A DNA stretch of 64,000 nucleotides. Origin: a virus. Every line of letters begins with the position of its first letter. The stretch's first letter is position 1. Made by a program: the position numbers and the translations under genes. Shown in pieces: positions 1,608 through 33,885 of the stretch. The notes beneath the pieces were generated by a model. That model was not told the DNA's origin, searched no databases, and worked only from the letters and a program-made list of their open reading frames with translations. The stretch covers positions 8,694 to 72,693 of the IMG/VR virus record IMGVR_UViG_3300028581_003594; one strand, given 5' to 3'.

Positions 1608-1923
1608 AACAATTAATTCTAAACTCAATAAAAGTAAAAGTGTAATAGATCCAAAATTAAAAACAAATTATGAAATTTATTGTAGAACTGTATGGAGATA
1701 TACTAATAGAAATTATAAAAAATTTATGTCTAATCAAAAAAGAAATAGACAAAATCATATAGATCATATACTATCTATTGTAGAAGGATTTAATAACAAT
1801 TTAGATCCAAAAATTGTAGGATCAGTTTATAATTTGAGGATAATAAAAGGTGTTGCTAATCGTAAAAAATCTTATAAGAGTGATATTACTATAAAAGAAT
1901 TAATAAAAAGGAACAACAAATGA
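1561..1923 (+). mobile_element. truncated HNH-type homing endonuclease remnant
   Basis: Very AT-rich, stop-free frame 1561-1923 encoding YCRTVWRYT...HIDHILSIVEGF...NLRII...NRKK; the only in-frame ATG is internal (1726). Confidence 0.65.
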
Positions 1924-3098
1924 GAAAATTATTTTATATGGGCCTTGAAAGTTATCAGGCACGATATACTTTCCAATTAACAGACTGGACAGAAAGAGTT
2001 TATAAGAGACGTGGCATAGAGTATGTGATCGTGCCGGGCACCACCATAGACAACTCCAAAGCGATAGTGACAGGACAGGTGCTGGACGCACATGGCAGAA
2101 GTTATTTTAGCATGAGCCAGATGATGAATTTGGTCAAGATGATGAAAGCAGGAGAGATCACATCAGATGATGCAATATTTTTTGAAGATATGTTCCAACC
2201 GGGCATGGAATCTCTGCCTTATATCATACAGCAATCACCGGAACAATATAGACCAAAAATTTATTTGAGATGCTTGGCACAGGCCATAGATCCAGACGAT
2301 TTTGTACACGTTTGGGGAATGAGTAAGTGGATGAGTTTATATGAGCAGATGTGTAATGAGATACCAAATGTGCATGTCCTTGCAACCAATGAAGAGATGG
2401 TGGCTCACATGAGGATAGCGAACTGGAAGGCTCCTATCTATAACATATCTGGGCTGAGTTACGGCAAAGCGGAAGTGTTAGAACGAGTTAAAAAGATCAA
2501 ACCATTTGAACAGCGAGCTCACAGAGTTGGATTTGCTGCTAGATGGGATCAAGAGAAACAACCTGGATTCTTCATGGATCTGATAGAACACTGGCATGCA
2601 AACAAAACTTTGCCTTCTATAGAATTTGCAATATTCTGTGGAGGACCGCTGAGATCCAACAATCCCGTTTATGTAAATCGAGCAAGATTAATGGCAGAAG
2701 CAGGTGCACTAAAAATATATGAAAATCTTAAAAAGAATGATTATTATGAATTATTGAATGATACTCGAGTGTTATTCAATTGTGCTCTACAGGATTGGGT
2801 ATCCAACACAGTGTCAGAGGCAGACACTCTAGGTTGTAATGTGCTATTCCCGGCATATCGATCATTTCCGGAAACTTTTGCCAATGATGAAACCAGGATG
2901 TATGTGCCATGGAGCGGCAGAGATGCAATGGAGAAATTAAAAACACTATTGACCAAACCATCTCCTAACATGGGACAGATATCGGACTGGACCGATGGCA
3001 CGGTTGATCGAATGATCGACATCATGACCGGCATAGGCGAACAGTGGAGGAGAGATGGCAGACATTATAGAAACACCGCAGCCGAAAGCAAATATTAA
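1920..3098 (+). CDS. GT-B fold (GT4-like) glycosyltransferase
   Basis: ARWDQEKQPGF, CALQDWVSNTVSEA and PAYRSFPE C-terminal GT-B motifs; 392 aa. Confidence 0.75.
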   Translation: MRKLFYMGLESYQARYTFQLTDWTERVYKRRGIEYVIVPGTTIDNSKAIVTGQVLDAHGRSYFSMSQMMNLVKMMKAGEITSDDAIFFEDMFQPGMESLPYIIQQSPEQYRPKIYLRCLAQAIDPDDFVHVWGMSKWMSLYEQMCNEIPNVHVLATNEEMVAHMRIANWKAPIYNISGLSYGKAEVLERVKKIKPFEQRAHRVGFAARWDQEKQPGFFMDLIEHWHANKTLPSIEFAIFCGGPLRSNNPVYVNRARLMAEAGALKIYENLKKNDYYELLNDTRVLFNCALQDWVSNTVSEADTLGCNVLFPAYRSFPETFANDETRMYVPWSGRDAMEKLKTLLTKPSPNMGQISDWTDGTVDRMIDIMTGIGEQWRRDGRHYRNTAAESKY

Positions 3099-3102
3099 AG
3101 TC

Positions 3103-4095
3103 ATGAACAAGGCAGTGCTGGTAGTGGGAGGAGCCGGCTACATTGGTTCTCACACAGCAAAAGAATTAACAAAAAATGGGTTCACGCCAGTGGTGGTGGA
3201 TAGAGATATCAAGACCAAACCCTGGGCCACCCAATATGGGCCGGCATTTGAATGCCATCTGCCCAGAGACACAGATTTCCTAAAAGAGATTGTTCACAGA
3301 TACAACATAGATTCTTGCATACATTTTGCCGCACACACACAGGTGGGAGAATCTGTAAAGGATCCATCTAAATATTACAAGAACAATGTGATAATGACCG
3401 TGCAGTTGTTGGACAAACTCAGAGAAGCAGGTGTGAACAAGTTTGTGTTCTCATCCAGTGCAGCCGTTTATGGCGTTCCTGCCAATGGCATAGCAGAAGA
3501 CGATGCGACAGATCTACAACCAATCAATCCCTACGGTAAAGGTAAACTAATGGTGGAGAATATTCTAAAAGATTATTATGTGGCCTATGGGTTGAGCAGT
3601 GTGAGTCTAAGATATTTTAATGCTGCAGGAGCAGATGCTGATGCAGAAATTGGAGAGTTGAGAGAAGATGAATCACATATCATACCATTGGCTATAGAAG
3701 CGGCATATCAAAATAAGGAATTCAAGTTGTTCGGCACTGATTTTGATACACCAGATGGAACCTGTGTGAGAGATTATGTGCATGTGACTGATCTTGCCAA
3801 TGCACATGTATTATCTCTACAACGTGCATCAGGAGATGTGATCTGTGAAAGATACAATCTGGGGTCGGGCATCAGCACCAGCAACAGACAACTGTTGGAC
3901 ACCATAAAAAAATATGTGGGCAATATAAAGATTGCGGAGATGGCTAGGCGGGCAGGAGATCCTCCCGTGTTGGTGGCAAATACCACACGTGCAAAAAGTC
4001 AATTAGGATGGCAACCTAAGCATAGCTCAGTTGACAACATAGTGCAGACTGCTGTAAAATGGTACAGTAAGATCAACCGGAAAGATTTAAACTAA
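3103..4095 (+). CDS. galE: UDP-glucose 4-epimerase
   Basis: GGAGYIG, HFAA, SSSAAVYG, YGKGK (YxxxK), RYFNAAGA and DGTCVRDYVHV; start at MNKAVL. Confidence 0.9.
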   Translation: MNKAVLVVGGAGYIGSHTAKELTKNGFTPVVVDRDIKTKPWATQYGPAFECHLPRDTDFLKEIVHRYNIDSCIHFAAHTQVGESVKDPSKYYKNNVIMTVQLLDKLREAGVNKFVFSSSAAVYGVPANGIAEDDATDLQPINPYGKGKLMVENILKDYYVAYGLSSVSLRYFNAAGADADAEIGELREDESHIIPLAIEAAYQNKEFKLFGTDFDTPDGTCVRDYVHVTDLANAHVLSLQRASGDVICERYNLGSGISTSNRQLLDTIKKYVGNIKIAEMARRAGDPPVLVANTTRAKSQLGWQPKHSSVDNIVQTAVKWYSKINRKDLN

Positions 4096-4847
4096 TGAGC
4101 GATATCAACAGAGATTCCGTAGTGCAAGGCTTGATGGACACCTGGGTGGACAAGAACAAGCCCGTCAGTGAACAGATAAGAGAAAGAGTCGTCAAGGCGG
4201 GAGATAGGTTCTTCGCAGCCGACAACATCAGCCAATACATAGAGGCGGGCGAAAGAGAAAAACTGATCATTGAGTTGACTGCAAAATTTGAGTCAGTGTT
4301 GGACAGCCTGGTGATCGACAGGGTGAATGATCCCAACAGCTCAGGCACGGGCAAGAGATTGGCCAAGATGTACATAAATGAGATAATGGGCGGAAGATAT
4401 AATCCTGCTCCGGAAGTCACAACATTCCCCAACGAAGACGGCAGGTATGATCAATTGATCGTGATAAGGTCAGATATAAAAAGTATGTGTTCACATCATC
4501 ATCAACCAGTGTCGGGAGTTTGTTATATAGGTTGTCTGCCAGGCAAGAGATTGATTGGATTGAGCAAATACACTCGGATAGCACAACATCAGGCAGCCCG
4601 AGGACATCTTCAGGAGGAACTGACGGAAAAGATTGCGTACAAGATTTCAAAGCTCACAGAGAGTCCAGCGGTGGGCGTGTACATCAGAGCAAGGCACGGC
4701 TGCTGTGAGAACAGGGGCATAAGGAGCAACAACTCCAGCACACAGACAACGGTGTTGAAAGGGCTGCTGAAAACAGATCCCGGATTAAAAAACGAGTTCA
4801 TGCACAACATTCAATTACAAGAAACACAGGGTGGTACAAATGGTTAA
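4095..4847 (+). CDS. folE: GTP cyclohydrolase I
   Basis: SMCSHHHQP, IGLSKYTR, LQEELT and HGCCENRG motifs. Confidence 0.95.
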   Translation: MSDINRDSVVQGLMDTWVDKNKPVSEQIRERVVKAGDRFFAADNISQYIEAGEREKLIIELTAKFESVLDSLVIDRVNDPNSSGTGKRLAKMYINEIMGGRYNPAPEVTTFPNEDGRYDQLIVIRSDIKSMCSHHHQPVSGVCYIGCLPGKRLIGLSKYTRIAQHQAARGHLQEELTEKIAYKISKLTESPAVGVYIRARHGCCENRGIRSNNSSTQTTVLKGLLKTDPGLKNEFMHNIQLQETQGGTNG

Positions 4848-5175
4848 CAGCTCAACAGTCAGCACCTGTCCACTATTTCCCGAATTGGAAAATGAAAAGT
4901 CACATGGGTCGTTAGATCCAAATACAGGACAAGTAACTATTCCTGGTCTTTTTTCTGTACAGGCGAACGCAACACTGCCACCGGGAGTGAATGTGGGCAG
5001 TGCATCAACATCATACACTGTGTCTCATGATGCATGGCAATCCACTGCCAACAGGAATTACGAATTAGAACTACATGAAGAATATCCTGCCCTACGTCAG
5101 GCATGGGAACATTATCAAACTATTTTAAGAATGTGCAAATCTCGAGAGGAGGAGACCGGTGAGAATAGATTATAA
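4840..5175 (+). CDS. hypothetical protein
   Basis: ORF 4831-5175 overlapping both neighbours; C-terminal YPALRQAWEHYQ helix. Confidence 0.6.
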   Translation: MVNSSTVSTCPLFPELENEKSHGSLDPNTGQVTIPGLFSVQANATLPPGVNVGSASTSYTVSHDAWQSTANRNYELELHEEYPALRQAWEHYQTILRMCKSREEETGENRL

Positions 5176-6202
5176 TCTACATCTTGATTACTCCGATGTG
5201 CTGCTGAAACCCAAAAGATCCACACTGAATTCTCGCAGAGATGTTGAGATGACTAGAGATTTCACATTTAGAAACAGCAAGAAACAATTATCTTACACTC
5301 CCATAATAGCATCCAACATGGATGGCGTGGGCACATTCTCCATGGCACGAGTATTGCAAGATTATAAGATGCTCACAGTGATTCGAAAACACTACTCATT
5401 CAATGATTGGAAGGCCACAGCAGGTTCGGGATTAAAATTCAAATATGTTTCTGCTTGTGTGGGCACCGGTGCCATATGGGATGAAGAAGCACTAGACTAT
5501 CAAACATTGAAACAAGTGATCGCAGCGTTTCCAGACATACCTGCCATCACAATAGACGTGGCAAATGCTTACCACGAGCAGTTCGTGGACTTCGTCAAGA
5601 GGATAAGATCAGAATTTCCCGACAAGATCATCATAGCAGGCAACGTGGTGTCGCCAGAAATGACTGAAGAATTGATTATTAACGGAGCAGATGTTGTGAA
5701 AATAGGTATCGGTCCGGGCTCTGTGTGTACCACAAGAACACAGACCGGAGTGGGAGTGCCACAGTTTTCTGCCATAGTTGAGTGTGCTGATGCTGCCAAT
5801 GGAGTGGGTGGCCATATCATTGCTGATGGTGGTTGCACCCAATCAGGAGACATTGCCAAGGCCTTGGGTGCAGGTGCTCATTTCGTCATGTTGGGCGGCA
5901 TGTTGGCAGCTCACGATGAATCCGAATTGGAATTGCGAGATGGCAAGAGGGTGTTCTACGGCATGAGTTCGGAATCAGCATTTGAGCAACACGGTGCAAG
6001 AAAAGACGGCTACAGAGGCACCGAAGGTAAAACAGTACTATTGGATAATAGAGGACCAGTGAGAGATACTGTGGAACAGATTCTGGGTGGTGTCAGAAGC
6101 TCTTGTGTATATATTGGTGCAAGAAGAATCAAAGACATGCCTAAATGTGCTCATTTCGTAAGAGTTAATAATATACAAAATAGAATATTCGATGGAAAAT
6201 AA
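5159..6202 (+). CDS. guaC: GMP reductase
   Basis: LDYSDVLLKPKRSTLNSR, ASNMDGVG, IDVANAY, GPGSVCTTR (catalytic Cys) and ADGGC; 347 aa with no CBS domains. Confidence 0.93.
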   Translation: MRIDYNLHLDYSDVLLKPKRSTLNSRRDVEMTRDFTFRNSKKQLSYTPIIASNMDGVGTFSMARVLQDYKMLTVIRKHYSFNDWKATAGSGLKFKYVSACVGTGAIWDEEALDYQTLKQVIAAFPDIPAITIDVANAYHEQFVDFVKRIRSEFPDKIIIAGNVVSPEMTEELIINGADVVKIGIGPGSVCTTRTQTGVGVPQFSAIVECADAANGVGGHIIADGGCTQSGDIAKALGAGAHFVMLGGMLAAHDESELELRDGKRVFYGMSSESAFEQHGARKDGYRGTEGKTVLLDNRGPVRDTVEQILGGVRSSCVYIGARRIKDMPKCAHFVRVNNIQNRIFDGK

Positions 6203-6659
6203 CGCAACTGTAGAAAAATTATACTTTACTAATATACAGATGAGGAATGCTCTGTTACAGATCGAAGACAAACTAGTGCATGACATGTGGCTGCCTGATA
6301 TCATACTTGGTGTCAACCGAGGTGGTTGCATTCCGGGAGTTTATCTTTCCCACAGGTTGAAGAAAGAACATGCTGTTTTGGATGTGAGATTGAGAGATCA
6401 CGCCGCCAAGCCCAACCTATCTGTGCTGGAACGAGAGTTTGCTTTCCAAAAAAAAATATTGATCATTGATGATATCAATGACACCGGAGCCACCTTCCAA
6501 TATATCTTGGACAATTTTGGACGCCATGACAGAGTGAAGTTTGCGGTGGTGATAAACAACAGGCCTTCCCCAGTAAAAGTTGACTATTTTGGTTATGAGA
6601 TAGACAAAAACGAGAATCCGCAATGGGTGGTTTTTCCATGGGAAGAATGGCAAAAATAA
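6192..6659 (+). CDS. type I purine phosphoribosyltransferase (Gpt-like)
   Basis: GVNRGGCIPG, PRPP loop ILIIDDINDTGAT, and WVVFPWE. Confidence 0.88.
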   Translation: MENNATVEKLYFTNIQMRNALLQIEDKLVHDMWLPDIILGVNRGGCIPGVYLSHRLKKEHAVLDVRLRDHAAKPNLSVLEREFAFQKKILIIDDINDTGATFQYILDNFGRHDRVKFAVVINNRPSPVKVDYFGYEIDKNENPQWVVFPWEEWQK

Positions 6660-6678: not shown

Positions 6679-7320
6679 ATGATACAGTTTGTACAGGACC
6701 TTTTAAAAGGCACGGACAAGATATTGGTCAGGAACCTTGTGATATTGCATACACTTATTATCGCTGTGAGCAATTATTTGGTCACCATACGATTCAGTTT
6801 GTTCGCGGAAAAAATCAATATATTGGGATGGGAGACCAACTTTCCCTTGGCAGCGGCAGCATTCACTTTTCCGTTAGTGGTCGTGGCCAGTGATCTCACT
6901 GTGAGATTGATCGGCAAGCAGAGCGCAAGGGCAGTGGTGGCGTTGGCAATCATACCGGCCATTGTGGCATCTGTGTTAGTATTATTGTATTTGGGAGACA
7001 AGCACGCCTATAGAGTGGGCATAGCCAGCGGCGTGGCCTATGGCATAGGCACACTGTTGGATGTATATGTTTTTCAAATAATCAGAGAAAAATTTAAAAC
7101 CAATTGGTGGGCGGCACCAGCACTGAGCATGATAGCTGCCAACATCATCGACACTTACATATTCTTTTACACGGCGTTCTATCCACAACCATGGGTGCAT
7201 GCGGTGGCCTTCAACAACACCATGGTCAAGATCATAGTGGGACAGGTTGTGTTCGTACCGGCCTATGGCATACTGCTTACATACCTGTCCAAGAAATTGA
7301 ACAGGAAATTGGTAGGATAA
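6679..7320 (+). CDS. yhhQ: VUT/YhhQ-family preQ0/preQ1 (queuosine precursor) transporter
   Basis: Multi-pass hydrophobic protein with IAVSNYLV, FTFPLVVVASDLTVRL, LDVYVF, NIIDTYIFFY and PAYGILL. Confidence 0.88.
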   Translation: MIQFVQDLLKGTDKILVRNLVILHTLIIAVSNYLVTIRFSLFAEKINILGWETNFPLAAAAFTFPLVVVASDLTVRLIGKQSARAVVALAIIPAIVASVLVLLYLGDKHAYRVGIASGVAYGIGTLLDVYVFQIIREKFKTNWWAAPALSMIAANIIDTYIFFYTAFYPQPWVHAVAFNNTMVKIIVGQVVFVPAYGILLTYLSKKLNRKLVG

Positions 7321-7336
7321 GGATATTTTTGGTAAG

Positions 7337-7365
7337 TTGACTTCCGATCTAAATATCCGTATAAT
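7337..7365 (+). promoter_or_regulatory. sigma70-like promoter giving a probable leaderless mRNA
   Basis: TTGACT(7337-42), 17 bp, TATAAT(7360-65), 6 nt, ATG(7372). Confidence 0.75.
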
Positions 7366-7371
7366 ATACAT

Positions 7372-7461
7372 ATGAGCAATAAAGCAGGAAAAATTTATAA
7401 AGCTAGTAAAATCCATAAATACTTTTATGAAGTTATATTGGATCAAAAGACCAGAACATAA
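7372..7461 (+). pseudogene. orphaned 5' end of the cupin gene (MSNKAGKIY...*)
   Basis: NKAGKI is identical to the start of 8004-8396 (MGNKAGKIWG); the frame then runs into endonuclease DNA and stops. Confidence 0.75.
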
Positions 7462-8014
7462 AGATATGTATCAAGAAGGTTATATAGGAATTACAACTAC
7501 AGAAGGTATAAATGGGAGATTATATACACACTTCAATAAATTAAAAAACAATTCTCATCCAAACCCAAAATTACAAAACGCTTATAACAAAGATTCTAAT
7601 CTGATAGTTGAAACAATTTACAAAGGATCAATAAAGAATTGTATAAAAAAAGAAAAAAAACTTAGACCCTATAAAAATGTAGGATGGAATATTTTAGAGG
7701 GTGGAGGATTACCTCCTTTACACAATGGTTATATTTGGTTTACAAATGGAAAAAAAAATAAATTAGATATTGATTGTCCGACTGGTTACTGGCCGGGCAG
7801 ATTAACAGTTCAAGGAGAAAATCATGGACATTATGGAAAACCAAAAAAATATAAAACAATAGGATTTAAAAAAGGATATACACCTTGGAATAAAGGACTT
7901 TCTTTAGGACCAAAAACAATAGTAAAATGTCCTAATTGTAATAAAAAGGGTGGGTTGCCTATAATGAAAAGATTTCATTTCACAAATTGTAAGGAGATTA
8001 ATAATGGGAAATAA
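7427..8014 (+). mobile_element. free-standing GIY-YIG (Seg-like) homing endonuclease
   Basis: LYWI...GYIGIT, conserved R, GWNILEGG, NUMOD-like PWNKG and C-terminal CPNC..HFTNC; very AT-rich; TAAATA 5 nt before the ATG. Confidence 0.85.
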
Positions 8015-8396
8015 GGCTGGTAAGATATGGGGTTCTACAGAACTAATACATGCCAATGGCGTGTTGGAATTCCATAGGATAGATTTCAAGGCAGGTGGCG
8101 TTTGTTCCAAGCACCAGCACAAGTACAAGTGGAATGGCTTCTACGTGGTCTCGGGCAAGATGAAGATCAAGGTCTGGCAGAGGGATCAGCAAGATCTCAT
8201 TGATGAAACTGTATTAGGACCGGGAGATTTTACTAAAGTTAAACCAGGATACTATCATCTGTTTGAAGGTTTGGAAGATGGCATGGCTTTCGAACTTTAT
8301 TGGGCTGAATTCAACCACGATGACATACAGAGAGAGAACGTGGGTCACTTCAGGAGCGGCAACGTTGTGAGACTGGATAAGAAAGATAAAAAATAA
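8004..8396 (+). CDS. cupin-domain protein (sugar isomerase-like)
   Basis: SKHQHKYKWNGFYVVSG and VKPGYYHLF cupin metal motifs. Confidence 0.8.
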   Translation: MGNKAGKIWGSTELIHANGVLEFHRIDFKAGGVCSKHQHKYKWNGFYVVSGKMKIKVWQRDQQDLIDETVLGPGDFTKVKPGYYHLFEGLEDGMAFELYWAEFNHDDIQRENVGHFRSGNVVRLDKKDKK

Positions 8397-8809
8397 TGGC
8401 CGACATCTATCACATATGGTGCGACCCAAAGGAAGGGGTCGACGGCAAGGACTTCGCAGAGAAGATCAGGATCTTCCTGGGAGAACTGGTCAGAGACGGC
8501 AAGCTGGAGTCATTCAGGGTCATGAGGATGAAGTTGGGATTCAGGAGCATGGAACTTCCGGACTTCCACATCATGATGGAGACCAAGAACATGCAGCAGC
8601 TGGATGACGCCATGAGCCTCGTGGGACGCAGGACCGGAGAATTGGAAGGACACCATGTGGCCATGAACTCCCTGGTTGACAAGAACACAATACAACATGC
8701 ATTGTACAGAGACTTCCCTGACGCTTTCCTTGGCAAGACTGGCAATGAGCCAAGCGAGGAAATAAAAGAAATATTAAAGGCAGTGGATCACTTTCATGAG
8801 CAAGATTAA
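8396..8809 (+). CDS. DUF6614-like protein
   Basis: DIYHIWCD, RMKLGFRS, FHIMME and ALYRDFPD pattern, recognised from memory. Confidence 0.6.
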   Translation: MADIYHIWCDPKEGVDGKDFAEKIRIFLGELVRDGKLESFRVMRMKLGFRSMELPDFHIMMETKNMQQLDDAMSLVGRRTGELEGHHVAMNSLVDKNTIQHALYRDFPDAFLGKTGNEPSEEIKEILKAVDHFHEQD

Positions 8810-9656
8810 GATAGCAGAACTATTCTACAGCATACAGGGCGAGGGTCGCTACATGGGAGTGCCTTCCGTGTTCATGCGCACATTTGGCTGCAACTTCACC
8901 TGTGCGGGTTTTGGCCTAACCAAAGGCATGCGCAGTGACGAGAATGACCGAGTGTTTGAACAACACAAACTGCATCCTTTCAAAGATTACAAAGAGCTGC
9001 CTCTGGTGAACACAGGCTGTGATTCATATGCATCATGGGATCCACGATTCAAAGATCTATCTCCCATGCTGACATCAGATGCCATTGTGGAAAGAACTAT
9101 GGAGATATTGCCTCACAGACGATGGGTGGATGAACATTTCATATTCACAGGCGGAGAACCATTGCTGGGTTGGCAGAGAGCATATCCTGATTTGTTGGAA
9201 CACGCGAAGATGCAAGAACTCAAAGAAATAACATTTGAGACCAATGGCACTCAAAAATTACATGTTGATTTTAAAAAATATTTGCAAGAATGGACACAAC
9301 GCAACAACAGAAACAAAGACAGCATTACATTTTCGGTCAGCGCAAAATTAAGCGTGAGCGGAGAAAAACGTGAAGAAGCCATACTGCCTGAAGTGGTGAC
9401 AGAATATGGTGAAGTGGGTCATGTGTATTTGAAATTTGTGGTGGCAGATCAAACAGATGTGCAGGAGGCCATGGAAGCAGTGAAAGATTATCGTAAAGCA
9501 GGATTCTCGGGATCAGTATATCTGATGCCTGTGGGTGGAGTGGAAAGCGTCTACCACATGAACAATAAAACAGTGGCAGAACTGGCAATGAAGATGGGAT
9601 ATAGATACAGTGATAGATTACAGGTGCCTCTGTTTAAAAATGCGTGGGGCACATAA
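8796..9656 (+). CDS. queE: 7-carboxy-7-deazaguanine synthase (radical SAM)
   Basis: ELFYSIQGEG, FMRTFGCNFTC...GCDS, FTGGEP, FETNGT and YSDRLQ. Confidence 0.9.
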   Translation: MSKIKIAELFYSIQGEGRYMGVPSVFMRTFGCNFTCAGFGLTKGMRSDENDRVFEQHKLHPFKDYKELPLVNTGCDSYASWDPRFKDLSPMLTSDAIVERTMEILPHRRWVDEHFIFTGGEPLLGWQRAYPDLLEHAKMQELKEITFETNGTQKLHVDFKKYLQEWTQRNNRNKDSITFSVSAKLSVSGEKREEAILPEVVTEYGEVGHVYLKFVVADQTDVQEAMEAVKDYRKAGFSGSVYLMPVGGVESVYHMNNKTVAELAMKMGYRYSDRLQVPLFKNAWGT

Positions 9657-12546: not shown

Positions 12547-13650
12547 ATGGTGAGCAAAAAAGAAAAGGGCACAGCGGTTGGCTCTCAGAACAGAACCGTA
12601 ACTCCAAATGAAGCAAAGGCAGCACTATCGCATTGCCTGCAATTACAAAGACCACTAATGATGTGGGGTGCACCTGGTATTGGTAAATCTGATATCGTCA
12701 AACAGGTCGCAGAAGAACAAGATAGATCAGTGATTGATATCAGGTTGCCATTGTGGGAACCCACAGATATCAAAGGTATTCCTTATTACAACAGCAAAGA
12801 AAACAACATGGTCTGGGCTCCACCAGCGGAACTGCCCACCGATCCGGAATCCACTGATATCATATTCCTGGACGAGCTTAATTCGGCTGCTCCTGCTGTG
12901 CAGGCCGCGGCATACCAATTGATATTGAACAGGAGGGTTGGACAATACCATCTTCCCAAGGGCGTGGCCATAGTGGCTGCGGGCAACAGGGACGCGGACA
13001 AGGGCGTGACCTACAGGATGCCGGCGCCGTTGGCCAACAGGTTCGTACACATCGAACTGAGAGTGGACTACGAAGATTGGATGCAGTGGGCGACCCTGCA
13101 CTACATACACCCAGACGTGGTGGGCTATGTCACATTCGCCAAACAAGATTTATATGATTTTGATCCCAAGGGATCATCACGTTCTTTCGCAACTCCAAGA
13201 TCGTGGAGTTTCGTCAGCCAACTTCTATCGGACAGCCTGCCTGAAAGTACGCTCACAGACCTCGTGGCAGGCGCAGTAGGAGAGGGCCTGGCCGTTAAGT
13301 TTATGAACCATCGTAAAATTAGCGGCCAGCTACCTAACCCATCCGACATACTGAGCGGCAAGGTCAAGGATCTAAAGACCAAGGAGATATCTGCGATGTA
13401 TTCTCTCACCGTCAGCCTGTGCTATGAACTGCAACAGGCGCACATAGACAAGCAGAAAAATTGGAACGACATGGCGGACAGGTTCTTCAACTACATGATG
13501 GACAACTTCGAGACCGAGCTGGTTGTGATGGGTGCCAAGATCGCTCTCACAAACTACAAATTGCCATTTGATCCAAGCAAGTTAAAATCATTCGATAGGT
13601 TCCATAAGAAGTTTGGCAAGTATGTCATAACTGCCATGGAGTCTAAATAA
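12547..13650 (+). CDS. MoxR/dynein-related AAA+ ATPase
   Basis: Walker A GAPGIGKS, Walker B IFLDELN, AAGNR, LANRF and TPRSW. Confidence 0.9.
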   Translation: MVSKKEKGTAVGSQNRTVTPNEAKAALSHCLQLQRPLMMWGAPGIGKSDIVKQVAEEQDRSVIDIRLPLWEPTDIKGIPYYNSKENNMVWAPPAELPTDPESTDIIFLDELNSAAPAVQAAAYQLILNRRVGQYHLPKGVAIVAAGNRDADKGVTYRMPAPLANRFVHIELRVDYEDWMQWATLHYIHPDVVGYVTFAKQDLYDFDPKGSSRSFATPRSWSFVSQLLSDSLPESTLTDLVAGAVGEGLAVKFMNHRKISGQLPNPSDILSGKVKDLKTKEISAMYSLTVSLCYELQQAHIDKQKNWNDMADRFFNYMMDNFETELVVMGAKIALTNYKLPFDPSKLKSFDRFHKKFGKYVITAMESK

Positions 13651-14894
13651 TGGCTGCGACAGATCAAAAAATTCTAGACAAACTGGTCACGGCGAGGATC
13701 GCGCTGTTGTTGAAGCATCCTTTCTTTGGCAACTTGGCCACGAGGCTCAAAATCGTCAACGCGGACGACTGGTGTCCAACCGCTGCCACTGATGGCAGAC
13801 ACTTCTTCTACAACATCAAATTCATCGACAGCCTAACACCGAGAGAGACCGAGTTCCTGTTCGGACACGAGGTACTGCACAATGTGTTCGAGCACATGCT
13901 GTTGAGGAGCGAGGGCAGAGATCCTGAGATATGGAACGTGGCTTGCGACTACGCGGTAAACCAGATATTGGTGGACTACAGGATCGGCGAGATGCCCAAG
14001 GGCAAGAAGGGCGAGAACAAGGGCTTCCAGGACGACAAGTACAAGGACTGGGCTTCGGAAAAGATCTACGATGAGCTGATGAAACAGGTCAAGAAGAACA
14101 AGGTGGACCTAAAGAAATTGGGACAGCTCCTAGACGAGCACATAGAATGGGGCAAGGGCCAGAGACAAGGCGAGGGTGAAGGCAAGGACAAGGATCAGCA
14201 GGGACAAGGATCCGGCGGAAAACCCGTGTACACAAAAGAAGAACTTAAAAAGATCAAGGATGAGATAAAAGAAGCCATGATGTCAGCGGCACAGAGCACA
14301 GGTGCGGGCAATCTCCCTGGCAGCATACAGAGGATGATAAGCGTGCTCACGGAACCAAAATTGAACTGGAGAGAGATCATACAGCAACAGATATTGAGCA
14401 CCATGAAGAGCGACTACACGTTCATGAAGCCCAGCAGGAGGAGCTGGCACATGGACGCCATCCTGCCCGGCATGGTCAACGTGGACAGCATTGACATATG
14501 CCTGGCCATTGACGCATCTGGATCCATAAGTGAACAGCAGTGCAGGGATTTCCTGGGAGAGATCAGGGGCATAATGGAACAGTACAAGGATTTCAAAATA
14601 CATCTTTGGTCCTTCGACACCAAGGTTTTCAACCCCAAGATATTCACGCCAGACAACATGGACGAACTAACGGAATACGTGATCGGCTCCGGTGGTGGCA
14701 CAGATTTTGACTGCAACTGGGAGTTCATGAAGGAAGAGGGCATAGAGCCCAAGAAATTCATCATGTTCACGGACGGATGGCCCTTTGACAGCTGGGGTGA
14801 CAAGGACTACTGCGACACCATATTCCTTATCAACAACAGCTACGAGAGGAACATACAGGCCCCATTTGGCATGACGGTGAACTATGAGGATTAA
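13650..14894 (+). CDS. DUF2201-type metallopeptidase plus VWA-like domain protein
   Basis: TAATDG, HEVLH (HExxH), MIDAS-like IDASGS, GGGTDF and FTDG. Confidence 0.88.
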   Translation: MAATDQKILDKLVTARIALLLKHPFFGNLATRLKIVNADDWCPTAATDGRHFFYNIKFIDSLTPRETEFLFGHEVLHNVFEHMLLRSEGRDPEIWNVACDYAVNQILVDYRIGEMPKGKKGENKGFQDDKYKDWASEKIYDELMKQVKKNKVDLKKLGQLLDEHIEWGKGQRQGEGEGKDKDQQGQGSGGKPVYTKEELKKIKDEIKEAMMSAAQSTGAGNLPGSIQRMISVLTEPKLNWREIIQQQILSTMKSDYTFMKPSRRSWHMDAILPGMVNVDSIDICLAIDASGSISEQQCRDFLGEIRGIMEQYKDFKIHLWSFDTKVFNPKIFTPDNMDELTEYVIGSGGGTDFDCNWEFMKEEGIEPKKFIMFTDGWPFDSWGDKDYCDTIFLINNSYERNIQAPFGMTVNYED

Positions 14895-16058: not shown

Positions 16059-16377
16059 GCAGACCTGGGTGCAACTGACTTCGGAGTTCGTCAAGGAATG
16101 GCCCGAGGTTCTAGAGGGCATCAAGTACAGCAACATGCCCATAGGCTACGTCAAGTACTGCGACATCACCTTGAAGAACAACGTGACCATACACTATGAC
16201 GTGGAGAAGGAACTGCAGAACAAGAAATCCCAGATGGAAGTGGCCAACACGCTGAAGAGATATGTCAGCAACAACTACGCCAACGTCAAACACGTGGACC
16301 TAAAATTTGACATACCCAAGCTGAAAAGAGAGATGGAGTCAAAGACCAACAAGCTGTTGGACAAAACTTTTAAATGA
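16033..16377 (+). CDS. hypothetical protein
   Basis: 114-aa ORF coupled to its neighbours. Confidence 0.65.
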   Translation: MPRKLPRTKQTWVQLTSEFVKEWPEVLEGIKYSNMPIGYVKYCDITLKNNVTIHYDVEKELQNKKSQMEVANTLKRYVSNNYANVKHVDLKFDIPKLKREMESKTNKLLDKTFK

Positions 16378-17021
16378 ATGCGTTCTGCCAAAGAAAATTC
16401 TTAATACTGACGGCTCATCCAGATGACGCAGAAGCCGCCTGCGGCGGATTGATATCCAAAATATTAGCGGGGGGTGGAGCGGTGACCAATCTCATAATGG
16501 TCCGACCATCCAAGGAGATCAACAGCAAGAGGGACGAGACCATAGTGAGGTCAGAGTTATACAGGAGCCAGGGCGTATTGAAGCACACCGTTGAGTGTTA
16601 CCAAACCCCTCTGCACGAAGACGGCAGGCCAAACTTGGTGCTGTCCAACAATCTCATCACGGAAGTGGAGATGGTGGCCAAGGATTATGACGTGTTGATC
16701 ACGCATTGGCGAGAGGACACACATCAGGAGCATAGGGTATGCTATGAGTTGGGTCTCAGCATGTCCAGGAAGTCATACCAGGAATTTTGGTGCATGGACC
16801 AGGCCCCGTACAACCTGCGTTATGAAAATTTCAACGCAAATCTCTATGTTGACATAACAGATCATGTGCAACACAAGATCAGGGCGTTGGAGTGCTACAA
16901 ATCATATTTCACGCAAGTAGCAATAGAACAGATCATCAATTACAATCGACACAGAGGTTCTTTCCTCGGCGAGGGCAGGATTGCAGAAACATTCTCGGTG
17001 CAATATCAGAAAATCACATGA
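16374..17021 (+). CDS. PIG-L/LmbE-family N-acetylsugar deacetylase
   Basis: AHPDDAE..CGG and THQEH metal motifs. Confidence 0.85.
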   Translation: MNAFCQRKFLILTAHPDDAEAACGGLISKILAGGGAVTNLIMVRPSKEINSKRDETIVRSELYRSQGVLKHTVECYQTPLHEDGRPNLVLSNNLITEVEMVAKDYDVLITHWREDTHQEHRVCYELGLSMSRKSYQEFWCMDQAPYNLRYENFNANLYVDITDHVQHKIRALECYKSYFTQVAIEQIINYNRHRGSFLGEGRIAETFSVQYQKIT

Positions 17022-17989
17022 ACATATTGATACTGGGTGGACATGGTCTGATTGGTAGCCGCGTCAGCCAGCGACTGAAGAAAGAGGGACACACCGTGGG
17101 TGTGGTGGACTGCTACCATCAATACAACGCCTTCCCAGACTGGGAGTATTTTCCATTGCTGGAGCAGAGGAAAGTCATTGCCAATAACGATCGCACATTC
17201 ATGGGCAGGATCGAGGACAAGGCATTCATGGCCACCACATTTGCTGAATTCCAACCAGAATCGGTTATTCATTTGGGCACTTACCCCAACGCCAAGATGG
17301 TTCAGAACAACATAGACGATGCCACAGGCAACATGATCAATGCCACGGCGAATGTGCTGGACCTATGCGTCAAACACAAGGTGAGGAAAATTGTTTTCGC
17401 CAGCAGCAGCATGGTGTATGGTGATTTCAAGGAACAGATACCAGATGAGAAAGTGACGCCAAACCCCAACACATTGTATGGCTCGTACAAGTATCAGGGT
17501 GAGCTGATGTGCAAAATTTGGAGGAGGGCACATGGATTGAATTACGTGATAATGCGACCATCAGCTCTGTACGGCACTCCAGACATAATAGTGCGAGTAA
17601 TAAGCCAATTGGTAAAAAGTGCTTTCACCAAAAAGGAAATGACGGTGCAGGGTCCTGACAACAAATTGGATTTCTCACACGTGGAGGACGTGGCGGAATA
17701 TTTTGTCAGGGCCGCGTTGTCTGATGTCGTGGATGAAGTTTTCAATTGCACCAGGGGCAGGGGACGAAGGATAATCGATGCCGCGGAAATAGTGCAATCT
17801 CTTATTCCCGGGGTCAGGATCATCACCAAACCACATGACGAATTTTATCCCAACAGAGACACATTGAACAGCAACAAAGCCATAGCGCTTTTGAAATTCC
17901 AACCCATGATCGACATTGAGCAGGGCATACCAGAATATGTCAACTGGTTCTCCAAGCAAAAATTTTATAGGGACAATCTAAATTTTTAA
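17018..17989 (+). CDS. NAD-dependent nucleotide-sugar epimerase/dehydratase (SDR)
   Basis: GGHGLIG, ASSSMVYG, YGSYK and RPSALYG; start at MNILIL with ATGA overlap. Confidence 0.88.
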   Translation: MNILILGGHGLIGSRVSQRLKKEGHTVGVVDCYHQYNAFPDWEYFPLLEQRKVIANNDRTFMGRIEDKAFMATTFAEFQPESVIHLGTYPNAKMVQNNIDDATGNMINATANVLDLCVKHKVRKIVFASSSMVYGDFKEQIPDEKVTPNPNTLYGSYKYQGELMCKIWRRAHGLNYVIMRPSALYGTPDIIVRVISQLVKSAFTKKEMTVQGPDNKLDFSHVEDVAEYFVRAALSDVVDEVFNCTRGRGRRIIDAAEIVQSLIPGVRIITKPHDEFYPNRDTLNSNKAIALLKFQPMIDIEQGIPEYVNWFSKQKFYRDNLNF

Positions 17990-19314
17990 TAACTGGCCTC
18001 TGCGGGATATAATTTGAAGAATGTGTCCTTGGTGAACTTCCAAGAATAAGTCTCTTCTATCTTGGCAACATCGAAATTACAATCTTCCACAAATTTTTTA
18101 GCATCATGTGCTCCTCGTTTAAGCCATGTGTTGCCTGTAGACAACCATTTTTCAATCCTATATCCCGTTTCCACTGTGGGACGTTGTTTATTCCATAATA
18201 TTAATTTGCTGACTTCTCTAAAGGCATTTTTCCATGCTGTGTAGTTGTCTGGGCACAATAATGCTGTGTTTGCCACTATAGGTACGACTTCATGTTTGCT
18301 ATAAAGAGTGAAATCCAGACCTGGGGTATCTGGAGTGTCGAGGCATAAAGATCTGGAAAAAAGATTGATATTAAATGTACCATATTCCAATCCAAGTTCG
18401 GATAATCTTGCATGAAATATATAATGTCTTTTATTTTTTGCTCTATCCACAGTGTAATCAAACATAAAATTCTCGTCCACCTGGCTTTTTGCAAACACAG
18501 CATAAAAATATTCTTGGCTGGATTGTTCGGCCGCTTGTTTATATGCTGCTGTTCTTCCATCCACTCCTCGCACCCAATACAGTTTATTTTTTAAGTTGTT
18601 TTTTTGTAAATGTGTTTTTAACAATTCATAGTTTCCCTCTTCGAATGGTTCTCCGTTGGATATGAAGGCTATATCAAAACAATCTTTTTCCATGTTGTTC
18701 TGCAATCGATACAATAAGTGATAGTCATATATCTGCGTGTGTATCTTATCCACGGCTGCATTTGGTACATAGAATGTGGTGCCATCGATGTAAATTTTTA
18801 GATCTTCCCAATAAGAGGGATATATTTTTTTATCGTTTTCCTTTTCAAAATGTTTAACGTATCTGCAGGGAGGTCCCGGCGTCCTTGTCAGACAATCGAT
18901 GTTATTGCTTAGATCGTAGGGGGATTCTGCAATGTTATAATCATAGGATATATTTTTTACAGTATGGTAGTTGATATCTTTGTAGTCTCGTAGATGGTCT
19001 ATTTGTTGTTCTGTATACTTCTTTGGTATTAAGAATGTATCACCTTCTTTCTGTCCTTCTATGGACCAAACATGAATTTGTTCTGTTTGGAATTGTTCGG
19101 GAATAAACATAAAATCAAAATTTCGATAATCAATTAAACTGGAAAGCAACCAAAGATATCGTGTGCTGCATGATGAGATCTGGGATCGTATTATTTCGTG
19201 GTAGCTCTGCAGGAATGGCATGACTCTCACGTAAGGAAATACTTTTTTAATATTCTTTATATTTTGTTCACTTTTACTATTTTTAAAATCTATACAGATA
19301 CAATCAAAAGCCAC
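17986..19314 (-). CDS. two-domain glycosyltransferase-like protein (GT-A-like, DxD absent)
   Basis: C-terminal half is paralogous to 30791-31681 (FISNGEP..VRGVDG..AYKQAA..AWKNAFRE); AT-rich. Confidence 0.6.
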   Translation of the reverse strand: MAFDCICIDFKNSKSEQNIKNIKKVFPYVRVMPFLQSYHEIIRSQISSCSTRYLWLLSSLIDYRNFDFMFIPEQFQTEQIHVWSIEGQKEGDTFLIPKKYTEQQIDHLRDYKDINYHTVKNISYDYNIAESPYDLSNNIDCLTRTPGPPCRYVKHFEKENDKKIYPSYWEDLKIYIDGTTFYVPNAAVDKIHTQIYDYHLLYRLQNNMEKDCFDIAFISNGEPFEEGNYELLKTHLQKNNLKNKLYWVRGVDGRTAAYKQAAEQSSQEYFYAVFAKSQVDENFMFDYTVDRAKNKRHYIFHARLSELGLEYGTFNINLFSRSLCLDTPDTPGLDFTLYSKHEVVPIVANTALLCPDNYTAWKNAFREVSKLILWNKQRPTVETGYRIEKWLSTGNTWLKRGAHDAKKFVEDCNFDVAKIEETYSWKFTKDTFFKLYPAEASY

Positions 19315-20398
19315 AAAATTCTCCTATCATATCACAAACATATTTGATTTCATTCTTCCTTAGATGTGGATAGATTGGAAGACTCAAACATTCTTTTGAA
19401 ATTTTTTCAGCATTAGGGAAAGACTCTTTATTATTAAAATATTTTGTGTGTGGCAATATCGTGTTGTAATGTATTTGTGTTTCTATGCCTTTCTTATTAA
19501 GAAATTCTTTTAAATTATCTCTATCTTTACATAATATCACAAATTTGTGATTGGACCCAGTTGTGTTTGATTGTGTGTCAATAATTTTAACATTCAACAA
19601 TCTTTTTAAATGTTGACTGTATTGTTCTCTGACTTGTTGCCTCCTGTCTTGCAGAGTATTAAAATCCATCATCAACACATTCAATTGCGCAGCTTGACTT
19701 TCTGATATTACAGAATTATATCCATAATCTATGTCAGCACCATTCACTCCATGGTATCTTAGAGCTAGACATTTTTCCTCTATTTCTTTGTCATCGGTTA
19801 ATATCATACCACCACTGCCAAGAGCAGGCAAATTTTTTGTAGGAGAGAAACTTAACACACTGATATCTCCCAGACTGCCAGAATGTGACTTTTTATAAAC
19901 GGCTCCCAACGATTGAGCAGCGTCTTCCACTAACAATATTTTATTTTTACGACAATACTGTTTCAACCTATCATAGTCAGCTAGATTGCCATAAAGATTT
20001 ACATATACTAAAGCATCGGCTTTGATACCTTTGATATCACTAATCTGAGCATCTACTCCCACGTCTACGAATTTCATATGCGCACCGGTACGTTTTATTG
20101 CTGTGGCGGTGCTGAGGAAGGATAGTGCTGGACATATCACTGTTTTACCTGGTCCTATTCCATGCGATCGTAGTGCAAAATACAGTGCATCCGTGCAGCT
20201 CTGCACTCCTATCGCATGCTCCCGTCCCACATAATTTGCTACCAAATCTTCAAACATTCCTAATTCTGAATCTACTTTTTTTCTACCCATTAGCACGTTG
20301 CCTGTTCGCCAAACGTCTCGGGCAGCTTGATCTAGTTCTCCCTTGTAACAAGAATAGATTCTATCTAATCCGTTAAATTTTATTTTGTAACCACTCAT
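19304..20398 (-). CDS. DegT/DnrJ/EryC1/StrS PLP-dependent sugar aminotransferase
   Basis: SCTDAL, EDAAQSLG, SFSPTKNL..GSGGM and LSLPIYP. Confidence 0.9.
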   Translation of the reverse strand: MSGYKIKFNGLDRIYSCYKGELDQAARDVWRTGNVLMGRKKVDSELGMFEDLVANYVGREHAIGVQSCTDALYFALRSHGIGPGKTVICPALSFLSTATAIKRTGAHMKFVDVGVDAQISDIKGIKADALVYVNLYGNLADYDRLKQYCRKNKILLVEDAAQSLGAVYKKSHSGSLGDISVLSFSPTKNLPALGSGGMILTDDKEIEEKCLALRYHGVNGADIDYGYNSVISESQAAQLNVLMMDFNTLQDRRQQVREQYSQHLKRLLNVKIIDTQSNTTGSNHKFVILCKDRDNLKEFLNKKGIETQIHYNTILPHTKYFNNKESFPNAEKISKECLSLPIYPHLRKNEIKYVCDMIGEFCGF

Positions 20399-21314
20399 AA
20401 TATTTCTCGATGCCTTTATTAAAATCATACTTAGGCATATATCCTAAAAAACTTTTAGCCTTTGTCACATCCAGCGTACCTCTGGAAGGATACAATGAAT
20501 TTTTGCCCGTGTCTATAATTTTGCTTTTGCTTCCGGTCAGCTTGATAATTTTCTCTGCCGCTTCTCCTAAACTGCTTGCATTGCCTGCTGTGATATTGAA
20601 TGTTTGATTGGCAGCTTTTTCCGCCAAAGCACAACTGATGATGCCATCGGCTGCATCCTCTACATAGGTGAAATCGATCTTATTTTCATTGTCATGGACA
20701 TAGATATTCTCGTTTAACATTGCGGCTTTAAAAAATTTGCTTAAAACTCGATCTGGTATATCGCCTGCTCCATACACCCCACTGGGCCTGGCTATCACGT
20801 ACTCGAGACCAAATGCCCTGTTGAATTGCTGTGTTAGTCTCTCTCCTGACAATTTGGCCTCTCCATAGATGTTGACCGGAGCAGGCACGCTGTTCTCATC
20901 CGCTCCATCCTTGAAGTCCCCGTATACCATGCTGGAGGACACATAAACAAAGCGCTTGACTCCGTGTTCCACGCAGTCCTGCAACATGCCCGTGGTGCCC
21001 ACCACTATGTTCTCCACTCCCAGCTCTGGCTGCTCATTGACTATCTTGGCCCTGGGATAACTTGCCAGGTGTATCACTATGTCTTGTTTTCTCAACCACA
21101 CGCGATCCAGAGGCACGGTCACATCTCCTGATTTCTTTGTTACCTGATTCCAGTTCCTCTGACGCCATTGACAAAGACTATCTAAAGAATCCCTATCAAT
21201 CACATCATAGGTTTCTCCAGAATCTATTGTGGTAATTTTATGGCCCATGCGACATAATTTCTCCACAATCCAACTGCCAATGAATCCTTCTCCTCCGGTG
21301 ATTAAAATTTTCAT
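20373..21314 (-). CDS. NAD-dependent nucleotide-sugar epimerase/dehydratase (SDR)
   Basis: GGEGFIG, VSSSMVYG, YGEAK and RPSGVYG. Confidence 0.9.
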   Translation of the reverse strand: MKILITGGEGFIGSWIVEKLCRMGHKITTIDSGETYDVIDRDSLDSLCQWRQRNWNQVTKKSGDVTVPLDRVWLRKQDIVIHLASYPRAKIVNEQPELGVENIVVGTTGMLQDCVEHGVKRFVYVSSSMVYGDFKDGADENSVPAPVNIYGEAKLSGERLTQQFNRAFGLEYVIARPSGVYGAGDIPDRVLSKFFKAAMLNENIYVHDNENKIDFTYVEDAADGIISCALAEKAANQTFNITAGNASSLGEAAEKIIKLTGSKSKIIDTGKNSLYPSRGTLDVTKAKSFLGYMPKYDFNKGIEKYYEWLQNKI

Positions 21315-22801: not shown

Positions 22802-22802
22802 T

Positions 22803-22907
22803 TTATTTGTAGATGAAAGGATCTTTCTTTTTCAGCTCTTTCAATCTCTTGCGATATTGCAACTCCAGTCGCACTTTGTTTATTAGGCCCTTGATCCATC
22901 CTATCAT
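22803..22907 (-). CDS. 34-aa small basic protein (not in the ORF track)
   Basis: MIGWIKGLINKVRLELQYRKRLKELKKKDPFIYK*; AAGGAG SD; ATGA overlap with the upstream stop; fills the gap exactly. Confidence 0.65.
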   Translation of the reverse strand: MIGWIKGLINKVRLELQYRKRLKELKKKDPFIYK

Positions 22908-23713
22908 GTTTTGCTCCTTTTTGTGTTGTACAGATCTAGAAATTTACCGGACATCAATCCAGCGGCATCCACGTGTGCCTGGTCCAAAGGATGCGTGGTG
23001 CCTCGCGGATAGTCGTTCAGCAATGTCCATTGATTGAACCCCATGTTCCTTTCTCCAAAAAAATGCCATTTGCCTAGGTCAAGCTCATTATACAACGCAT
23101 TCATCAAAGGGTCAACTTGGCTGAGTGGTTTGAGTTCATCCCAGAACAATGTGTTGTCCGCCAGCGTGAAAAAATAACCTATGTTCTTCTTTTCCAATAT
23201 GTTCTGCAGCCAAACAATGCTCTTCCAGCTGAGATAGGTCTCATGATACTGGTTGGCCGCGTGCCTATACAATGCGTCAGCGAATGGCCCCACTCCCGTG
23301 CTGCGCATGTCCTCCCTGCGTTTTTTCCAAACTTCCAGCTGTGGCTCGCTGGTGGCCAATTTCTTGTGTACCTCCGCCTGTGTGTCCGAGGTGTCCCAGG
23401 GAGTTATGGTGGCCCATCTGGTCTTTTCCAGCACTGCGTTCCTGGGCATGGCCCAGTCGTAGCGAGAACAGAAGCTCCACATGATGGCCACGAACATGTC
23501 ACGTGATTGGTTCTGCGACACGTACTCGAACACACGCCGCGCTATGCCCGCGTTTCCTGTGCCTGGATATGACACAGTGGCGTAGTCCGCATTGGCGCTG
23601 GTGGCCAGCAGTGCCGACCATGACTTCTTGGAGGGGACCTTGCCGTCCTTGTCATCAGACAATTCGTGCCCGTAAGTGAAGCTGCAGCCCCCAGATAATA
23701 ACAGTCTATTCAT
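22904..23713 (-). CDS. SGNH/GDSL-like hydrolase or acyltransferase
   Basis: GGCSFTYG (block I), PGTGN, and C-terminal THP. Confidence 0.6.
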   Translation of the reverse strand: MNRLLLSGGCSFTYGHELSDDKDGKVPSKKSWSALLATSANADYATVSYPGTGNAGIARRVFEYVSQNQSRDMFVAIMWSFCSRYDWAMPRNAVLEKTRWATITPWDTSDTQAEVHKKLATSEPQLEVWKKRREDMRSTGVGPFADALYRHAANQYHETYLSWKSIVWLQNILEKKNIGYFFTLADNTLFWDELKPLSQVDPLMNALYNELDLGKWHFFGERNMGFNQWTLLNDYPRGTTHPLDQAHVDAAGLMSGKFLDLYNTKRSKT

Positions 23714-33850: not shown

Positions 33851-33856
33851 ATGACA

Positions 33857-33885
33857 ATTATAGCTTAATTATCGTGGTAGATCAA
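33857..33885 (-). promoter_or_regulatory. sigma70-like promoter, probable leaderless mRNA for the minus-strand glycosylation operon
   Basis: TTGATC, 17 bp, TATAAT, 6 nt, ATG(33850). Confidence 0.7.

Follow-up and report, generated by a model that had tools for sequence, protein, structure and literature searches.

What would a sugar-transferring enzyme be doing among genes for a modified guanine? The question is posed by a locus on the plus strand of a 64,000-nucleotide stretch of viral DNA, here called the window, which comprises bases 8694-72693 of the 72.7-kb uncultured viral contig IMGVR_UViG_3300028581_003594. In this locus the gene for a GT-B glycosyltransferase (GT; 1920-3098) and galE (open frame ending at 4095) lie between a dpdL-like gene (819-1241) and folE (4095-4847), an arrangement already recognised in an initial annotation, which suggested that a sugar may be added to a deazaguanine base or to its precursor. 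It also stated that no description of a sugar-bearing 7-deazaguanine in phage DNA was known to it, and none was found in the literature searched, which did not cover subscription journals. The analysis described here makes it highly probable that GT and GalE are functional members of the DpdL/DpdA deazaguanine system, and it gives about even chances that a hexose, probably from UDP-galactose, ends up on 7-deazaguanine in the DNA of the phage.

Association of the glycosyltransferase with DpdL

The product of the dpdL-like gene carries the sequence LGYPHRHMF, which fits the LxxxHRHxF signature and bears out the assignment made in the initial annotation; it also matches phrog_17812 (E 7.5e-34). 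DpdL is a paralogue of QueD/PTPS that is set apart from QueD by this signature in place of CxxxHGH (Cui et al. 2023; PMC10516641). In a tblastn search the DpdL-like protein is 55-57% identical to proteins of PA5oct and ACP17 that are listed as DpdL (Cui et al. 2023; PMC10516641), and 30.5% identical (E 7e-8) to the DpdL of phiST.

The co-occurrence of the GT family with dpdA and dpdL, which had been named as a way of checking the proposal, was counted in 167 loci made up of the window, 80 contigs with close relatives, 80 contigs with distant members and six cultured phages. The contigs with distant members were retrieved with an alignment as the query, to which their GTs are 29-45% identical, and each of the two contig scans contributed its best 80 of about 590 confirmed matches, so that the 160 uncultured loci are a sample. 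Gene families were counted with hidden Markov models (HMMs) built for this analysis. DpdL is present in 157 of the 167 loci and lies within 3 kb of GT in 156. FolE is found in 130 loci (93 within 3 kb), GalE in 120 (116 within 3 kb, in three architectures), QueE in 117 (42 within 3 kb), a DpdA3-like transglycosylase in 103 (78 within 3 kb) and a DpdA2-like one in 26, always within 3 kb. A purine phosphoribosyltransferase (PRTase; 68 of 167) and a GMP reductase (33 of 167) are not tied to GT. Of 108 loci in which both flanks of GT extend for 5 kb or more, 106 contain DpdL; the ten loci lacking DpdL comprise eight that are cut close to GT and two with full flanks (L006 and L048). Grouped by single linkage at 60% identity, the GTs form 24 lineages, one of which holds 129 of the 167 loci. 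DpdL occurs within 7 kb of GT and on the same strand in 20 of these 24 lineages, FolE and QueE in 21 each and QueD in 18. Four further loci of the BUDD type, found with the GT of a Xanthomonas phage, all contain DpdL.

Among cultured phages, GT is paired with DpdL in those of Pseudomonas (PA5oct), Acidovorax (ACP17), Xanthomonas (BUDD), Burkholderia, Sinorhizobium (Phosso) and Synechococcus (BUCT-ZZ01). The order of the genes is DpdA2-GT-DpdL-QueE in ACP17, DpdA3-GT-DpdL-small open reading frame (ORF)-GalE remnant-PRTase-QueE in PA5oct, GT-DpdA2-DpdL-QueE in BUDD, FolE-second GT-DpdA2-like-DpdL-GT in BUCT-ZZ01, DpdL-GT-x-FolE in Phosso and DpdA2-DpdL-GT-GalE-QueD in a group of uncultured viruses typified by locus L112. 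As these orders vary between groups, shared descent alone does not explain the linkage of GT to DpdL. No bacterial relatives of GT were confirmed in two genome scans, one with an alignment and one with the ACP17 GT alone, both limited by short peptide patterns, and viral contigs scanned with only the PA5oct GT as the query gave no match.

The tblastn search with the DpdL of the window matched 28 phage records. A whole-record profile search found GT in none of five other DpdL phages (RHph_I1_18, Bakedbeans, Ahp1, D479 and phiST) and recovered it in all five positive-control phages. DpdL therefore occurs without GT while GT hardly ever occurs without DpdL, which implies a one-way dependence of GT on the DpdL context. 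The pattern fits an addition to the DpdL pathway that is optional and acts on or after the product of DpdL.

The Cellulophaga phage phiST, which encodes FolE, QueD, QueE, DpdL and DpdA3, was shown by mass spectrometry to contain plain 2'-deoxy-7-deazaguanosine (dDG) in place of dG (Cui et al. 2023; PMC10516641). Judged against that description, the window resembles phiST in having FolE, QueE, a DpdL-like protein with the LxxxHRHxF signature and a probable DpdA3-class gene, with no QueC in the locus. It differs in the addition of GT, GalE, GMP reductase, PRTase, YhhQ, a conserved protein termed o286, a cupin and a DUF6614 protein; phiST has neither a member of the GT family nor GalE. In phages of the phiST type the pathway would then be seen in its undecorated form. 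The co-expression of the DpdL and DpdA of ACP17 in Escherichia coli did not yield dDG, and it was considered that other enzymes may be needed (Cui et al. 2023; PMC10516641). According to the supplement of that study the ACP17 GT, which is encoded between those two genes, was not part of the E. coli construct (PMC10516641). The string 'glycosyl' occurs nowhere in the main text of the paper and once, in an unrelated place, in its supplement, and neither its table nor its text mentions GT (Cui et al. 2023; PMC10516641). The DNA of PA5oct resists five restriction enzymes in a pattern that has been read as modified G (Yee et al. 2025, preprint; PMC12191111).

Several loci hold further genes at or near the same positions. 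In PA5oct, EST35_0320 (172 aa; 9642-10160 of L083) aligns with GalE over no more than the N-terminal, NAD-binding half of that enzyme, occupies the place that GalE has in the locus of the window, and may be either a remnant or a cut-down form of it. BUCT-ZZ01 encodes a second, different GT1-like protein of 447 aa (Glyco_trans_1_4, E 3.4e-5; 9010-10353 of L001) between folE and the DpdA2-like gene, and therefore has two glycosyltransferases in its deazaguanine locus. In each of five loci with distant GTs (L094, L097, L100, L103 and L107) the HMMs for FolE and PRTase match one and the same open frame, with identical start offsets, which suggests a fusion of the two. Two families of about 284 aa (11811-12662 of L094) and about 379 aa (13256-14392 of L095) adjoin GT in 13 and 10 GT lineages respectively. 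They gave no Pfam match and no likeness to DpdA2 or DpdA3 (hhalign probability below 5%), and they are candidates for further pathway members or for an unrecognised transglycosylase.

The glycosyltransferase and the epimerase as enzymes

GT is a 392-aa protein of the GT4-like, retaining type that belongs to no curated Pfam family, its score of 18.1 bits to PF13524 being under the gathering cut-off of 25 bits; PF00534 appears in the precomputed matches of three of 120 listed close homologues. The AlphaFold2 model, made from a 47-sequence alignment, shows a two-domain GT-B fold (pLDDT 94.6, pTM 0.92). It superimposes on retaining GT4 enzymes with VIA Z scores of 25-27, among them sucrose-phosphate synthase (6kih; Z 26.7, root-mean-square deviation 3.6, 341 residues aligned), MshA (3c4q; Z 25.9) and BshA, and on the tetrahydrobiopterin glucosyltransferase BGluT (5zes, 5ze7 and 9v0l) with Z 23-24, and Foldseek gives E values of about 1e-10 to 1e-11. 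Its best viral structural matches include the ACP17 protein encoded between DpdA2 and DpdL (TM 0.73/0.83).

Among 47 homologues the donor-site residues R208 and K213 are invariant, and the conservation of D292 and E300 is 90% or more; a profile alignment places these pairs on the motifs GR..K and LEA found in WlaC (6eji) and GlgM (6tvp). GT thus shares with MshA, BshA, sucrose-phosphate synthase and BGluT the fold (Z 23-27) and the Arg/Lys and acidic donor motifs. It differs from them in sequence (8-14% identity) and in its N-terminal acceptor domain, which has an invariant set of its own (R15, Q67, D90, D127 and W137) with no known counterpart. The ratio of non-synonymous to synonymous substitution (dN/dS) against the two nearest relatives is 0.033-0.040. 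GT is thus a real gene with an intact donor site, and its product looks active. Overall charge was tried as a clue to DNA binding and was set aside: the GT family is acidic (median pI 5.77; 44 of 47 below 8), and the measure is uninformative because homologues of DpdA, which necessarily bind DNA, are acidic as well.

GalE, the UDP-glucose 4-epimerase, scores 354.2 bits to TIGR01179 (cut-off 262.3) and 283.6 bits to the solved GalE 8wxk, and contains the NAD-binding motif GGAGYIGS and the catalytic YGKGK. Its open frame begins at 3055. The stop codon of GT occupies 3096-3098, and four nucleotides further on an in-frame ATG at 3103 opens a textbook GalE N-terminus, which makes this start more likely than the ATG at 3055 and would give a protein of 330 aa (3103-4095). 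The coupling of galE to folE noted in the initial annotation is confirmed, as the stop of the former and the start of the latter share one base in TAATG (4093-4097). Four RNA libraries from lake water, each of a different study, gave contigs that are 90-99% alike to the locus and span GT as well as the GT/GalE and GalE/FolE junctions, with some bins of the locus uncovered. These contigs are a weak hint that the locus is expressed, being strandless sequences of relatives that may include DNA.

Where the sugar would go

In the favoured reading FolE, QueD (probably encoded elsewhere in the genome) and QueE would produce 7-carboxy-7-deazaguanine (CDG), which the DpdL-like T-fold enzyme would convert to 7-deazaguanine by the proposed decarboxylation. 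QueC, QueF and QueA are absent from the deazaguanine locus, and therefore no queuine-type side chain can be made. The DpdA3-like transglycosylase, encoded upstream of the window, would exchange 7-deazaguanine for guanine in phage DNA, and GT would use a UDP-hexose, most likely UDP-galactose supplied via GalE, to place a sugar on the deazaguanine, either as the free base or in DNA. That GalE accompanies GT in three architectures points to UDP-galactose or its N-acetyl form. DpdL has been modelled to accept only the free base (Cui et al. 2023, supplement; PMC10516641), and because of this, and because the nearest structures act on small molecules, glycosylation of the free base before its insertion is at least as likely as glycosylation of DNA. 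Hexosyl-7-deazaguanine in virion DNA would then shield it from host nucleases. That guanine is replaced by galactosyl- or another hexosyl-7-deazaguanine throughout the genomes of these phages is put forward tentatively, at somewhat less than even chances.

The functional model for such a step is provided by the alpha- and beta-glucosyltransferases of phage T4, GT-B enzymes that transfer a sugar from a UDP-sugar onto 5-hydroxymethylcytosine in DNA and so protect it against restriction; in the window, too, a UDP-sugar would be used on a non-canonical base. The similarity is not a specific one, since in the viral fold search proteins named as DNA alpha-glucosyltransferases rank no higher than 35 and 41, with TM values of about 0.5, and since the purine analogue that would serve as acceptor lacks a hydroxymethyl group. 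The 72.7-kb contig (21% complete according to CheckV) contains no match to PF00303, the thymidylate-synthase-type hydroxymethylase. A sugar on a 7-deazaguanine derivative in nucleic acid is familiar from animal tRNA, where galactosyl- and mannosyl-queuosine carry it on a hydroxyl of the cyclopentenediol side chain of queuosine. In the huimycin pathway the glycosyltransferase HuiG puts N-acetylglucosamine on 'the nucleophilic nitrogen' of a 7-deazapurine base (bioRxiv 10.64898/2026.04.15.718813). As depicted there, HuiG is a GT-B enzyme working on a base derived from 7-deazaguanine, a demonstration that such chemistry can take place, and it differs from GT in that its acceptor is free, O-methylated preQ0 and its setting an actinomycete secondary-metabolite cluster without DpdA. 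The two enzymes are likened by description and not by sequence. The acceptor atom of HuiG is said to be the exocyclic N2.

Several points weigh against a hexosylated base in the DNA. The loci L006 and L048 keep GT-GalE-FolE-GMP reductase-PRTase-QueE with neither DpdL nor o286 within 10 kb, and are the only clear exceptions to the pairing. The locus counts overstate independence because so many of the loci fall into one broad single-linkage lineage, and DpdA2 or DpdA3 is detected by HMM in only 129 of the 167 loci and in 10 of the 24 lineages, with HMMs that are narrow and would miss DpdA1 and short forms of DpdA3; the short DpdA3 of phiST had no match in the set of GT neighbourhoods. The decarboxylase activity of DpdL is only proposed, heterologous tests having failed (Cui et al. 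2023; PMC10516641). A Pfam PTPS search of the 72.7-kb contig was empty, so that QueD was not found in this 21% of a genome; because the contig is a fragment, QueD is probably encoded elsewhere in the genome of the phage, as it is in PA5oct. The nearest structures (sucrose-phosphate synthase, MshA, BshA, LmbT, SenB and BGluT) are all GT4 enzymes with small-molecule acceptors and not DNA, and the sugar may be put on a free intermediate without necessarily being kept in DNA. There is also the matter of the acceptor atom: 7-deazaguanine has no hydroxyl, and the sugar would have to be attached to a ring or exocyclic nitrogen, to O6 or to carbon 7 or 8. A sugar on N2 would lie in the minor groove at every G and be awkward for replication. 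Carbon 7, which DpdL would free and which lies in the major groove, would suit replication better. GT is confined almost entirely to loci whose DpdL would have removed the substituent of carbon 7, so that the sugar may sit in the major groove on carbon 7 or 8, both electron-rich, to give a C-glycosidic DNA base. We know of no precedent for a C-glycosidic DNA base, and of no enzymatic precedent for glycosylation at carbon 7 among GT4 enzymes.

The small acceptors of all the closest structures also lend themselves to an unlikely though substantial alternative, in which GT acts on a free 7-deazapurine intermediate and the sugar stays out of the DNA, being a transient handle that is taken off before base exchange or in the course of it, or part of a soluble huimycin-like glycoside. 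It fits with the modelling of DpdL for the free base only (PMC10516641), DpdL being the nearest neighbour of GT in most loci, and with the precedent of HuiG on a free base (10.64898/2026.04.15.718813), as well as with the 14 of 24 lineages that have no DpdA2 or DpdA3 HMM match within 7 kb on the strand of GT. The narrowness of those HMMs, by which DpdA1 and short DpdA3 forms would be missed, takes weight from the last point; in the cultured GT phages for which an assignment or a homologue is available, six in all, GT has a DpdA-family gene beside it, and a soluble glycoside would bring the phage no obvious gain. It is doubtful, and rather improbable, that the pathway instead runs at the level of nucleotides, as in tubercidin and toyocamycin synthesis, with the PRTase forming a 7-deazapurine nucleotide that GMP reductase converts and GT working on the nucleoside or nucleotide. 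The window does have a PRTase and a true GMP reductase between folE and queE, and a PRTase is also found in the PA5oct and BUCT-ZZ01 loci. Tubercidin and toyocamycin clusters are described as combining FolE, QueE, PRTase and GMP reductase, with decarboxylation of CDG proposed, and the tubercidin clusters as listing the same tailoring set of CDG, PRTase, decarboxylase and GMP reductase (10.64898/2026.04.15.718813). The contig differs from them in lacking a UbiD decarboxylase and the adenylosuccinate synthetase and lyase (no PF00709 or PF00206 match in 72.7 kb) and in having a DpdA3-like DNA transglycosylase, and both GMP reductase and PRTase are, as counted above, in the minority among GT loci. 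The PRTase is equally simply explained by salvage. Because DpdA releases one guanine per base exchanged, the PRTase may return this guanine to GMP and so to GTP for FolE, which would be a simpler reading than a tubercidin-like set.

If GT and GalE had nothing to do with deazaguanine, they would glycosylate a polymer of the host surface or a virion protein and owe their place in the locus to inherited synteny. Phage GT4 enzymes and GalE are indeed common auxiliary genes, the window contains a second, separate sugar cluster, and 129 of the 167 loci belong to one broad lineage. Such an origin is very unlikely given that GT lies beside DpdL in 20 of 24 lineages, in rearranged orders, with two DpdA subfamilies and in phages of six host genera; that no member of the family was found in bacterial genomes by two scans, limited by their search patterns, also speaks against it. 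The structural match to BGluT raises a further idea, namely that GT turns a pterin derived from FolE into a pteridine glycoside, as the cyanobacterial enzyme does with tetrahydrobiopterin, and that the DpdL-like protein is an enzyme of the PTPS type. The nearness of folE, the paralogy of DpdL with QueD/PTPS (PMC10516641) and the one relative that infects Synechococcus could be accommodated in this way. BGluT is no closer to GT than dozens of other GT4 enzymes are, GT is accompanied by QueE and DpdA, neither of which has a part in making pterin glycosides, and the same module is found in phages of Pseudomonas, Xanthomonas and Sinorhizobium, all of which makes the idea highly improbable.

The sugars known from phage DNA sit on hydroxymethyl-pyrimidines, and the known 7-deazaguanine bases of DNA carry small substituents or none. 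A hexose on 7-deazaguanine, if true, would join both strategies in a new class of DNA base and would be the first sugar-bearing purine analogue in any DNA, with consequences for restriction, CRISPR, modification-dependent nucleases and sequencing chemistry. The GT family is large, all but 4 of 8,000 candidates scoring significant and forming 776 clusters at 50% identity, and its members abound in viromes from lakes and the sea, so that the modification, should it be real, would be a common one. It can be tested, since at least five GT-bearing phages are in culture, PA5oct DNA already appears to contain modified G, and phiST with its plain dDG is a natural GT-less control.

The remaining locus and the window

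The deazaguanine locus begins with the 481-aa gene of the DpdA3-like DNA transglycosylase (7313-8758 of the contig), which lies mostly upstream of the window and contributes only its 3' end (1-65). The protein is 42% identical over 477 aa (E 1.9e-118) to QCG76197.1 of PA5oct, which is listed as DpdA3 (Cui et al. 2023, Supplementary Data S1; PMC10516641). It gave no Pfam TGT match and no TGT in a profile search of the PDB; its family aligns with the DpdA2 family at an hhalign probability of 97.8%, and DSGGxQ is invariant within it. We take this sequence to be the TGT catalytic motif.

The next gene, o286 (286-822), encodes a conserved 178-aa protein of no assigned function that accompanies DpdL and GT: its family HMM matches in 100 of the 167 GT loci, and the ACP17 homologue lies between folE and dpdA2. 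Its model (pLDDT 87.8) found no Foldseek match at E <= 0.001, and the protein atlas scores are all at most 0.84. The best VIA Z of 6.4, with three QueE structures among the matches, would make it QueE-like; this lies inside the noise range and is not trusted. Between dpdL and GT are a 119-aa ORF without a family match (1201-1560), which is seen only in the lineage of the window (31 of 81 related loci by tblastn), and a 65-aa ORF with weak PHROG matches only (1726-1923), whose stop overlaps the start of GT in ATGA.

Downstream of galE, FolE, the GTP cyclohydrolase I, is identified by PF01227 (E 4.3e-37), and a small ORF of no assigned function (4831-5175) has an HMM match (E 8.2e-19) to a PA5oct ORF at the corresponding position of that locus (9342-9638 of L083). 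They are followed by GMP reductase (5159-6202; NF003470, 469.7 bits against a cut-off of 397), the XGPRT-like PRTase (6192-6659; PF00156, E 9.5e-13), whose homologues are those of the PA5oct and BUCT-ZZ01 loci, and a YhhQ-type queuosine-precursor transporter (6679-7320; TIGR00697, 86 bits against 51). After an ORF of unassigned function in the 7320-8004 interval comes the cupin (8004-8396; PF07883, E 1.4e-7), which the initial annotation had correctly placed further along the locus; it occurs only in the lineage of the window and could be sugar- or oxygen-related. A DUF6614 protein (8396-8809; PF20319, E 1.2e-27) precedes the QueE-like radical SAM 7-carboxy-7-deazaguanine synthase (8796-9656), which matches phrog_2076 (E 1.2e-49) and, below their cut-offs, several NCBIfam QueE models. 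All of these genes are on the plus strand.

The second sugar cluster (16374-34879) is mostly on the minus strand and is, as annotated, well apart from the deazaguanine locus. It encodes a PIG-L deacetylase, two SDR epimerase/dehydratases, a DegT aminotransferase, a carbamoyltransferase, four radical SAM proteins (two with SPASM) and several unknowns, and looks as if it produces either a modified peptide or an unusual amino sugar. Also far from the locus, a 269-aa ORF (40650-41459) has a weak match to the C-terminal end only of Pfam QueC (E 1.8e-5). A MoxR-type AAA ATPase followed by a DUF2201 metallopeptidase/VWA protein (12547-14894) is a conserved phage pair with no evident link to the deazaguanine locus.

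Since 72.7 kb correspond to 21% completeness, the parent genome is probably of jumbo size. At least ten metagenome runs from lake water contain DNA near-identical to the window. The virus is identified as a myovirus by a gp25-like baseplate gene and a fibre-like ORF of 4,291 aa; the latter (45057-57932) is a single frame with FG-GAP and CBM5/12 repeats and presumably encodes a giant fibre or adhesin.

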